The notes beneath the pieces were generated by a model that was not told the origin of the DNA, made no database searches, and saw nothing but the letters and a program-made list of their open reading frames with translations. A program made the translations under genes and the position numbers. Source: Escherichia coli (lineage in GTDB: Bacteria; Pseudomonadota; Gammaproteobacteria; Enterobacterales; Enterobacteriaceae). From it: a DNA stretch of 64,000 nt. This document shows positions 16,735 through 19,176 of this stretch, one piece after another. Numbering within the stretch: position 1 is the stretch's first letter; each line of letters begins with the position of its first letter. The DNA is taken from the NCBI RefSeq assembly GCF_044324785.1, contig NZ_CP172127.1; one strand, given 5' to 3'.

Positions 16735-19176
16735 TTATAAACAATGAGCTTGAACCGTTTCGTATACCACACTATCAGGCGCATCTTTGGGTAACGTATA
16801 TTGTAGATGGCATATTTTGCCATCAGGAAGAATAACCTTAAGAGTGTCCGTATTATTTTCAATGTTATTAATAAAGAAGGTGCCTTCTTCAACAACGGAG
16901 GTCAGATAGTTTCCCTGTGCGGTATGAACAGAACTATTCAGAGGTAAAAGGGCATTATTGAATCGCACATCCTGGAACATCACCCGACGTGCTGATAGCA
17001 CGGTGAAGGAAATACTTCCGACTGAATAACGCCCTTGTTTAACTTCTTGAGTAGCGTTTGCAATATCGGTTTTTTTAGCCAATGATTTGGGGTCAATTTC
17101 AACAATTGCCGTCTGGTACGGAGGTAAAACGGGCACAACAGCTTGCCCCCACCAGTCAGTCCATGCGGCACCCTGTGGCGTTTGAATTTGGACGCCAGCC
17201 TGTTTTTGGCTCAATTGGGCAATGGCCCAGGTATCAGCGATCCTGTCCGGGGAAAAGGTTATTCCATCCTTGTGCAGAGCGATCCCGCCATCAAGCGTGG
17301 CAGAAGAATAATGGCTGTCCGAGCCGCTTTGTCCCGCAGATAGTCCGAGGCGAGTATAATGTAGGTTAGTATTAAGGCCACCGCTGGCATTATTGCCACT
17401 ATCTTGGCTACGTTCATAGCTGACATAATAACTACTGTCTTTCAGGAAGGCGCCAGAAAGCGTTGAGCCAATGCGAGTATCATTATTTTCATGTCGCACC
17501 CAACTACTGGAATAATGGTTACCTAAAGGCACGTAAACAGTAAGGTTAAGTGAGTCTTCACTGTCATTTCCTTTTTCATGCCGGTAATAAAAATTGGTGG
17601 AGAAATATTTAAACTGCCTACTCCAGTTTATTGTGGTGTTAGTTGAATCACCGTCACGATAATAGCTTTTATTATTGGTATAACTTAGGCTAATTCCACC
17701 TAATAAATCGTGATACCAGGTCAGCGATCCAGTAAGCTCATTTTTATTGTAGGCATAGAATTTATTGTCATCTCCATAATCCCATGGTTGGTCGCTGATA
17801 TCGTCATTTTGCGTGGAATCAAGCAAATCGCGATAACCTCGCTCACTCCAGGTGTCGGTAACGGAAAAGCTTAAATTATCCAGCAGGTCTGCACCTAACG
17901 TGATCGCTGCCTGATTCCCTCGCTTATTATGATTATCATCGACCGCACTTCGGAGCTGAATAGAAGTTGACCAGTGAGTGAAAGGCTGAAAATCAACCCC
18001 GCCAGCAAAAGCATAATAGTTATTTGCGACGATGCCGCCTGTCGATAAAGTATAAGTATTAAAAACCGGCTGACTCCAGGCACCGCTTAACACCATCGGT
18101 TCGTCATCTTCTGCACCAACCTCGCGAACCCGGCCTACGGCAAAATTGTAGTTTGGTGTTCCTGTCACCGTTCGACGGAAAGAATCGCTAAAAACAGTAA
18201 ACTGGTCGCTACTCCCATCGCTTTCGATAACTGTCACATCCAGGTTACTGCTTTGATTCAGGACTGGAACGTTGGTTAAAGTAAATGGTCCCATTGGAGC
18301 CAAAGTAGAATAAATAAGCTGTTTATTTTGTCGGATTTCAATGCGTGCTTGCGATGATTTGACATTACCAGAAACCATCACATCATTACGTCTGTTTGGG
18401 GTTAGCGAAATATCAGGTTGTATCTGTACACCGTAAAGTGAGGCGCCGGAAAGTAGGGGGTTGGCAAGGTTGATCCCGCCTGCCTGCATATTTATTTTGC
18501 TTGCGGTGAAAGTATGTTCGGCATAAGTATAGAGATTGTCGAGATTGTGATCGCCATTAGATAAGGCAACCGAGGTACTATTACGTATTATCCAGTCGCC
18601 CATATTGATGCCGCTTTGTAGCGCAGCACTGGTATAATTATCATTATCGCCGTTATATTTATTAATATTATGCAATAATGAATAGTTTATAGTCGCCCCC
18701 GTCCCTCCAGTGGTGTAACCGCTAACCTCATCTGGGGATTGTAAGGCAATCGCCTCTGTCGGTAATAACACAAAGACTTTGTATTGCGCCGAATCGAAAT
18801 GTACCACCGCTGATGGATAGAGCATCTGCAATGTTTGGCAACGGTCGTCAGTTTCCGTTAAATTTTGTGGGATGATGACACCAGCTCTTTGCATCCAGTT
18901 AGTGTCAGCGCAAAGTTCGCCTTGTGGGTCAATAGTGATGGTAACATTGACATTTCGGTGACCATTAATGTCCATATTGACCTGTTGCGTGCCGGGAGGA
19001 AGACGTGCTTCTTTTGAAAAATAAGCCGCAACATTTTTATCTATACCAAATGAGCGTAACGCATCGCTATTGAAGTTAAGAGCGGTCTCCATCTCTTCCT
19101 GCGACGAAGCTGCCATAGCTATAATAGGAATAAAATGCAGCACTAGAAAGATCTTGTTGAGGGGAAAATATTTCAA
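16735..19176 (-). CDS. yhcD: fimbrial outer-membrane usher YhcD
   Basis: 813-aa ORF with FimD-like N-terminus (LNFNSDALRSFG...LPPGTQQVNMDING); ORF-track start is TTG at 19174-19176 preceded by AGGA and supplying a signal peptide; first ATG (19116) would give 793 aa with no signal peptide. Confidence 0.88.
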   Translation of the reverse strand: MKYFPLNKIFLVLHFIPIIAMAASSQEEMETALNFNSDALRSFGIDKNVAAYFSKEARLPPGTQQVNMDINGHRNVNVTITIDPQGELCADTNWMQRAGVIIPQNLTETDDRCQTLQMLYPSAVVHFDSAQYKVFVLLPTEAIALQSPDEVSGYTTGGTGATINYSLLHNINKYNGDNDNYTSAALQSGINMGDWIIRNSTSVALSNGDHNLDNLYTYAEHTFTASKINMQAGGINLANPLLSGASLYGVQIQPDISLTPNRRNDVMVSGNVKSSQARIEIRQNKQLIYSTLAPMGPFTLTNVPVLNQSSNLDVTVIESDGSSDQFTVFSDSFRRTVTGTPNYNFAVGRVREVGAEDDEPMVLSGAWSQPVFNTYTLSTGGIVANNYYAFAGGVDFQPFTHWSTSIQLRSAVDDNHNKRGNQAAITLGADLLDNLSFSVTDTWSERGYRDLLDSTQNDDISDQPWDYGDDNKFYAYNKNELTGSLTWYHDLLGGISLSYTNNKSYYRDGDSTNTTINWSRQFKYFSTNFYYRHEKGNDSEDSLNLTVYVPLGNHYSSSWVRHENNDTRIGSTLSGAFLKDSSYYVSYERSQDSGNNASGGLNTNLHYTRLGLSAGQSGSDSHYSSATLDGGIALHKDGITFSPDRIADTWAIAQLSQKQAGVQIQTPQGAAWTDWWGQAVVPVLPPYQTAIVEIDPKSLAKKTDIANATQEVKQGRYSVGSISFTVLSARRVMFQDVRFNNALLPLNSSVHTAQGNYLTSVVEEGTFFINNIENNTDTLKVILPDGKICHLQYTLPKDAPDSVVYETVQAHCL

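Follow-up and report, generated by a model that had tools for sequence, protein, structure and literature searches.

A TTG codon as the predicted translation start of a divergent beta-class fimbrial usher gene in Escherichia coli

At which codon does translation of a fimbrial usher begin when the first ATG of its open reading frame would give a product that cannot be exported? This question is raised by an operon in a 64,000-nt stretch of Escherichia coli DNA, hereafter the window, in which the genes are arranged in the order gltB-gltD-[DUF1120, chaperone, usher, small ORF, DUF1120]-nanQ. Surrounding the chaperone-usher pair are DUF1120 subunit-like genes and a 190-aa gene of unknown function, and the operon has a GC content of 42.6%, compared with ~51% in the rest of the window. 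The window is genuine E. coli DNA, with 99.5% identity to ordinary strains over positions 36000-44000.

Candidate start codons in the usher reading frame

The usher gene lies on the minus strand at positions 16735-19176. When read from a TTG at its 5′ end, it comprises 813 codons extending down to position 16735 and encodes a protein of 813 aa, as found both by reading the sequence directly and from the list of open reading frames. In searches against Pfam, residues 184-724 of this protein match the Usher domain (PF00577) with a score of 280 bits against a cutoff of 27.1 (E = 5.6e-83), and residues 34-167 match PapC_N (PF13954) with 42 bits against a cutoff of 27 (E = 1.2e-10). Residues 740-797 align to positions 8-66 of the 66-position PapC_C profile (PF13953), with a score of 22.7 bits against a cutoff of 27. 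The order of PapC_N, Usher, and the below-cutoff candidate PapC_C matches that of the domains in FimD and PapC, and in these proteins, as in the window usher, an x-F-N motif opens the N-terminal domain a few residues past the cleavage site, which for the window usher is a predicted one. Both FimD and PapC are Sec-exported outer-membrane proteins. Directly upstream of the usher gene and on the same strand is the gene for a periplasmic chaperone of 233 aa (19188-19889), the product of which matches PapD_N (3.4e-17) and the NCBIfam model PRK09918 (212 bits against a cutoff of 183).

The TTG, at positions 19176-19174 of the minus strand, is the 5′-most start codon possible for the usher, because the frame is closed by an in-frame TGA (19197-19195) seven codons before it and no canonical start occurs between the two. 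Three other codons within the frame deserve consideration, namely a GTG at codon 12 (19143-19141), an ATG at codon 21 (19116-19114), and a second ATG at codon 29 (19092-19090), all read on the minus strand. The first in-frame ATG is therefore located 20 codons 3′ of the TTG, just as the first-pass annotation had described it. TTG starts are a recognized minority in E. coli, where ATG greatly predominates among start codons and GTG is also commoner than TTG, and these general preferences count in favor of codons 21 and 12, respectively. On the strength of five independent lines of evidence (the leader, Shine-Dalgarno pairing, the starts of orthologues, the family profile together with an alignment to FimD, and NCBI records), we infer that the usher is translated from the TTG and not from the first ATG, giving an exported, leader-bearing form, and we assign this reading a probability of roughly 0.93. 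All five lines agree with the start that the first-pass annotation had proposed.

The leader and the ribosome-binding site

The N-terminus of the TTG-initiated form is MKYFPLNKIFLVLHFIPIIAMA, followed by ASSQEE. Its first 22 residues, encoded at 19176-19111 of the minus strand, are predicted on the basis of homology and of a crude rule to be a Sec-type leader that signal peptidase I would cleave after A22 (AMA / ASSQEE). The n-region contains K2 and K8, which bring the net charge of residues 1-10 to +2. The h-region, extending from I9 to I19, is free of K, R, D, and E, includes one His, and reaches a mean Kyte-Doolittle hydropathy of 2.61 in its best 10-residue window, a value comparable to those of the orthologues, K-12 YhcD, and PapC (1.9-2.8). 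The c-region is only 3 residues long, and the putative cleavage motif, A20-M21-A22, places Ala at positions -3 and -1, with Pro17 as a helix breaker at -6. The features of a canonical signal peptide that the extension to the TTG had been said to add (two lysines, a hydrophobic core, and an AMA motif) are all found in MKYFPLNKIFLVLHFIPIIAMA.

To pass the crude rule, a sequence must have a net positive charge, contain an uncharged 10-residue window whose mean Kyte-Doolittle hydropathy is 2.0 or higher, and carry small residues at both -3 and -1. The TTG form passes it, and the forms that would begin at codons 12, 21, and 29 all fail. As a background, 0.6% of six-frame windows of the operon pass the rule, as do 0.2% of codon sets drawn at random from the usher gene, and because such passes amount to only 0.2-0.6%, the predicted leader is not a chance feature. 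The rule is specific but insensitive, in that the chaperone's own evident leader fails it.

The protein that would be made from the ATG at codon 21 begins MAASSQEEM and is 793 aa in length, which coincidentally equals the length of K-12 YhcD. The absence of a signal peptide from this product, which was the original reason for doubting the first ATG, is borne out by its composition: it is acidic, with a net charge of -3, and its maximal 10-residue hydropathy is 0.30, such that no export would be possible. Codon 21 is accordingly a very improbable start, and we read it as encoding the Met at position -2 inside the A-M-A motif. A start at the GTG of codon 12 would retain some of the hydrophobic residues in a short leader, MLHFIPIIAMA, but this peptide has no positive n-region, and its h-region is too short for a Sec leader, making initiation at this codon scarcely credible.

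Examination of the region 5′ to each candidate start also distinguishes among them. The Shine-Dalgarno core AGGA (19188-19185 of the minus strand), which can be extended to UAAGGA, is separated from the TTG by an 8-nt spacer (19184-19177) and overlaps the chaperone stop codon, a TAA at 19190-19188 that ends 11 nt before the TTG. Both of these distances are the ones reported by the first-pass annotation. The duplex formed with the 3′ end of 16S rRNA (ACCUCCUUA) is strongest for the TTG among the candidate starts, with a computed value of -6.1 kcal/mol, and those for codons 12 and 21, at -0.7 and +1.3 kcal/mol, respectively, correspond to the lack of a Shine-Dalgarno sequence at either position.

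Initiation at the ATG of codon 29, which would produce a protein of 785 aa beginning METALNFN, has more in its favor in this respect, as the SD-like sequence AGGAAGAG is located 4 nt upstream and forms a duplex of -4.3 kcal/mol. Moreover, a 785-aa version of the usher is present in MetaClust (P0036). The product of such a start, however, has no leader, carries a net charge of -2, and has a maximal hydropathy of 0.30, and we consider it very unlikely that the usher begins here. Codon 29 is better viewed as a decoy start, with its preceding SD-like sequence probably explaining the one old 785-aa gene call, although minor internal initiation at this codon may give rise to a non-exported by-product.

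Two further aspects of the start region were considered and set aside. The minimum-free-energy structure predicted for the mRNA around the start pairs part of the Shine-Dalgarno sequence, but this fold is not significant (z = -1.4), and an argument based on mRNA accessibility was dropped, as it provides no evidence either way. An out-of-frame ATG at 19184 was also dismissed, since it abuts the Shine-Dalgarno sequence without any spacer and opens a reading frame of only 3 codons (ATG CTA TCT TGA).

Translation from the TTG would most likely proceed as follows. Ribosomes would either bind directly to the UAAGGA that overlaps the chaperone stop codon or terminate chaperone synthesis and reinitiate 11 nt downstream, in both cases beginning at the UUG. 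The resulting 22-residue leader would direct the protein to Sec export, signal peptidase I would cut after A-M-A, and the mature usher, starting ASSQEEMETALNFN, would then enter the outer membrane. In this account, the "first ATG" simply supplies the Met of the cleavage motif. The 11-nt spacing between stop and start would allow translational coupling to the chaperone gene. The sequence itself shows the coordinates, the leader features, the Shine-Dalgarno pairing, the conserved position of the start in orthologues, and the agreement with public annotation; initiation at the TTG, cleavage after A22, coupling, and any role of the weak start codon in dosing the usher are inferred. With respect to the start codon itself, the TTG has the attributes of a genuine non-ATG start, in that its Shine-Dalgarno spacing is functional, its position is conserved in orthologues, and there is no better alternative in frame.

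Orthologues and family alignments

A search of 5.8 billion proteins returned only two relatives with identities to the usher between 35% and 90%. The first (P0002, at locus L003) is 51% identical and comes from another enterobacterium, in which the gltB-gltD...nanQ context is shared and gltD is 86% identical to that of the window at the DNA level. The second (P0004, at locus L008) is 50% identical, resides at a different locus, and is a split pseudogene (470 + 319 aa). The L003 gene has a TTG at the codon aligned with the TTG of the window usher, an AGGA located 7 nt before it, and the leader MKRIPLSQLALLLCSVPALALA, and its next canonical in-frame start does not occur before codon 57. The L008 gene has an ATG at the aligned codon, likewise with an AGGA upstream, and the leader MRFPTNKLMSILICSFPVIACA. 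The leaders of the three ushers are all 22 residues long and contain Pro17 and an A-x-A motif, which is A-L-A in L003 and A-C-A in L008.

The codons used within these leaders are also informative. Among the leader residues shared with L003, six of nine are specified by different synonymous codons. For L008 this applies to all five shared residues, with the TTG/ATG start codon counted as one of them. Synonymous differences of this kind are what a translated leader would be expected to show.

The alternative starts, by contrast, are conserved in neither orthologue. At the position of codon 21, the ATG of the window usher is replaced by CTG in L003 and by TGT in L008, and neither orthologue encodes Met where codon 29 aligns. 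The codons corresponding to the GTG of codon 12 are TTA and TTG, and the homology among the leaders extends upstream of this position, which further argues against a start there.

In the alignment to the NCBIfam model PRK15304, residues 9-812 of the usher correspond to profile positions 7-800 of 801, with a score of 710.6 bits, just below the curated cutoff of 723. Because residue 9 aligns to profile position 7, the N-terminus of this family model covers the extension that begins at the TTG. In K-12 YhcD and in the 12 more distant ushers that were read, a leader lies a few residues ahead of the conserved F-N/F-D motif, with the exception of P0003, which contains a long insert.

FimD is only distantly related to the window usher (E = 5e-8 over the N-terminal 250 residues). 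In this comparison, residue 22 of the shorter FimD chains (3rfz_B) falls opposite usher residue 53, and when the numbering of these chains is taken as that of the mature protein, residue 1 of mature FimD corresponds approximately to usher residue 32. A form initiated at codon 21 would have only 11 residues ahead of this point and would therefore offer no room for a leader, and a form initiated at codon 29 would start just 3 residues before it.

Relation to K-12 yhc and distribution of the operon

The usher had been named yhcD by the first-pass annotation, and this name does not hold. The K-12 gltF-yhcADEF operon is likewise found between gltD and the nan genes, at the same place in the chromosome, and has the same layout, with a DUF1120 subunit, a PapD-type chaperone, an usher, a small protein of unknown function, and a second DUF1120 subunit. 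K-12 YhcD (b3216) is also the best-matching named E. coli usher, aligning with the window protein from end to end. The two ushers, however, are only 35% identical, the chaperones (YhcA in K-12) are 39% identical, and the subunits are 26-27% identical, with no match at the nucleotide level. Moreover, the K-12 yhcD gene starts with ATG and encodes a different leader, MLKKTLLAYTIGFAFSPPANA. We therefore rejected the identification of the window gene as K-12 yhcD. It is better named a divergent beta-class usher at the yhc position, and the locus should not be typed as yhc. The K-12 yhc operon has been assigned to the beta class of chaperone-usher systems and is described as cryptic and as sporadic in E. 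coli (PMC3559732; PMC5216030). FimD and PapC, compared with the beta clade of the window usher type, belong to clades gamma1 and pi (PMC3559732).

The window operon was absent from 5,426 complete RefSeq E. coli genomes searched by megablast and blastn, in which a 7.2-kb query found matches only in its flanks. The K-12-type yhcAD genes were present in 1,140 of the 5,426, every copy having a DNA identity of 99% or more. K-12 and the other laboratory strains that have been ribosome-profiled lack the window allele, and the papers found in a literature search all dealt with the K-12-type yhc locus, none of them concerning the window allele or its start codon.

Draft assemblies give a different picture of the distribution. 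The operon is 99.9% identical to sequences in three draft assemblies labeled E. coli, in all of which the usher has been called from the TTG. Isolates that carry the allele include those of assemblies GCA_037978695.1 and GCA_000778785.1. The window usher is identical to an 813-aa protein (P0030, comprising EEU9148493.1 and others) that is encoded on 261 contigs. The record EEU9148493.1, titled [quoted passage not shown] has the N-terminus MKYFPLNK and differs in no respect from the window usher; it represents the same gene, with the proposed start already annotated. Those variants with 1-4 substitutions that were compared are also 813 aa in length and begin MKYFPLNK, and the protein is conserved in this form over hundreds of E. 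coli contigs. Among the loci examined, the chaperone-usher junction is invariant within E. coli. The proposal of a TTG start is thus correct but ordinary, and it is not new, as it corresponds to the existing public NCBI annotation.

The choice of start codon matters for annotation only. A gene model built on the first ATG would portray an usher incapable of export, misleading both the design of constructs and proteomic searches. No correction is needed, given that the current NCBI annotation already has the TTG start. The one mildly interesting point is the presence of a rare and very divergent beta-class operon at the yhc position, which is of modest interest for the fimbrial typing of E. coli.

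A separate consideration is whether the operon is silent or decaying, in which case no start codon would be used in practice. Low GC content is typical of H-NS-silenced DNA, and the value of 42.6% for the operon would fit such a state. The K-12 yhc operon is, as noted above, regarded as cryptic (PMC5216030; PMC3559732), and the L008 orthologue is split. In the window, however, all five genes of the operon are intact, the usher reading frame is full length and retains its domains, and the usher protein persists with 1-4 substitutions over hundreds of E. coli contigs, observations that argue against decay. Silence under laboratory conditions, moreover, would leave the choice of start codon unchanged once the operon is transcribed. 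We consider it very doubtful that silence or decay deprives the gene of a working start.

Initiation at the TTG, as favored above, might have a further significance. One tentative possibility, which we hold to be somewhat less likely than its negation, is that the operon constitutes a distinct and functional beta-class fimbrial type that replaces yhc between gltD and the nan genes, uncharacterized to date and found in none of the 5,426 complete genomes but in hundreds of drafts. The weak TTG, which follows the chaperone stop codon by 11 nt, might then be a retained device by which usher synthesis is kept low and coupled to that of the chaperone. A TTG start for the usher is common to the window gene and to its 51%-identical orthologue from another enterobacterium.

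A divergent operon at the yhc position

The usher belongs to a five-gene beta-class fimbrial operon (window 15488-20754, minus strand) that occupies the yhc position and, taken as a whole, represents a very divergent allele there: its proteins share 25-39% identity with those of K-12 gltF-yhcADF. This operon occurs in none of the 5,426 complete RefSeq E. coli genomes; it is carried by hundreds of draft contigs. Its GC content is 42.6%, versus about 51% for the window, and the flanks of the operon, at 95.7-98% identity to other E. coli, have likewise diverged further than the rest of the window (99.5%).

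The interval between the operon and nanQ also differs. Whereas K-12 and other E. coli carry the DUF1016 gene yhcG at this position, the window lacks it there and contains a 101-aa ORF (14728-15033, minus strand), for which the precomputed gene table gives no Pfam family.

Start codons and nearby decoys

Within the usher gene, the in-frame ATG at codon 29 lies 4 nt downstream of a Shine-Dalgarno-like AGGAAGAG (together 19090-19104, minus strand), and one old automatic gene call of 785 aa (UPI0005A85B38) begins at this ATG, which is a decoy start. A three-codon mini-ORF, ATG CTA TCT TGA (19173-19184, minus strand), begins directly 3′ of the Shine-Dalgarno AGGA, leaving no spacer, and its TGA overlaps the usher TTG; it is probably meaningless.

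For the gltF-like subunit, the mechanical ORF (20008-20790, minus strand) opens at TTG 20790 and encodes 260 aa, but the likely start is ATG 20754, 12 codons 3′ of that TTG. The resulting 248-aa protein, the length called in E. coli assemblies, has a clear leader, with the N-terminus MSLVKKLTLSVAILAITTGSALA/AD. The mechanical ORF of the distal DUF1120 subunit (15488-16153, minus strand; 221 aa) opens at GTG; related assemblies call this gene from an ATG three codons downstream, yielding a 218-aa form with the N-terminus MNKISLIGLITLFCSTNVSA/AD.

Related operons elsewhere

A third orthologous operon, of about 50% identity, is present in a metagenome assembly (L008, 5001-7472), at a different locus flanked by fadH-like and ygjK-like genes. 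Its usher is split into pieces of 470 and 319 aa, and the usher leader ends in V-I-A-C, a lipobox-like sequence whose resemblance is probably due to chance. In assembly GCA_028598205.1 (L007), the chaperone gene call (2285-2749) is merely 154 aa, and the 6.2-kb region differs from the window by four indels; the short call and the indels could reflect a frameshift or an assembly error.
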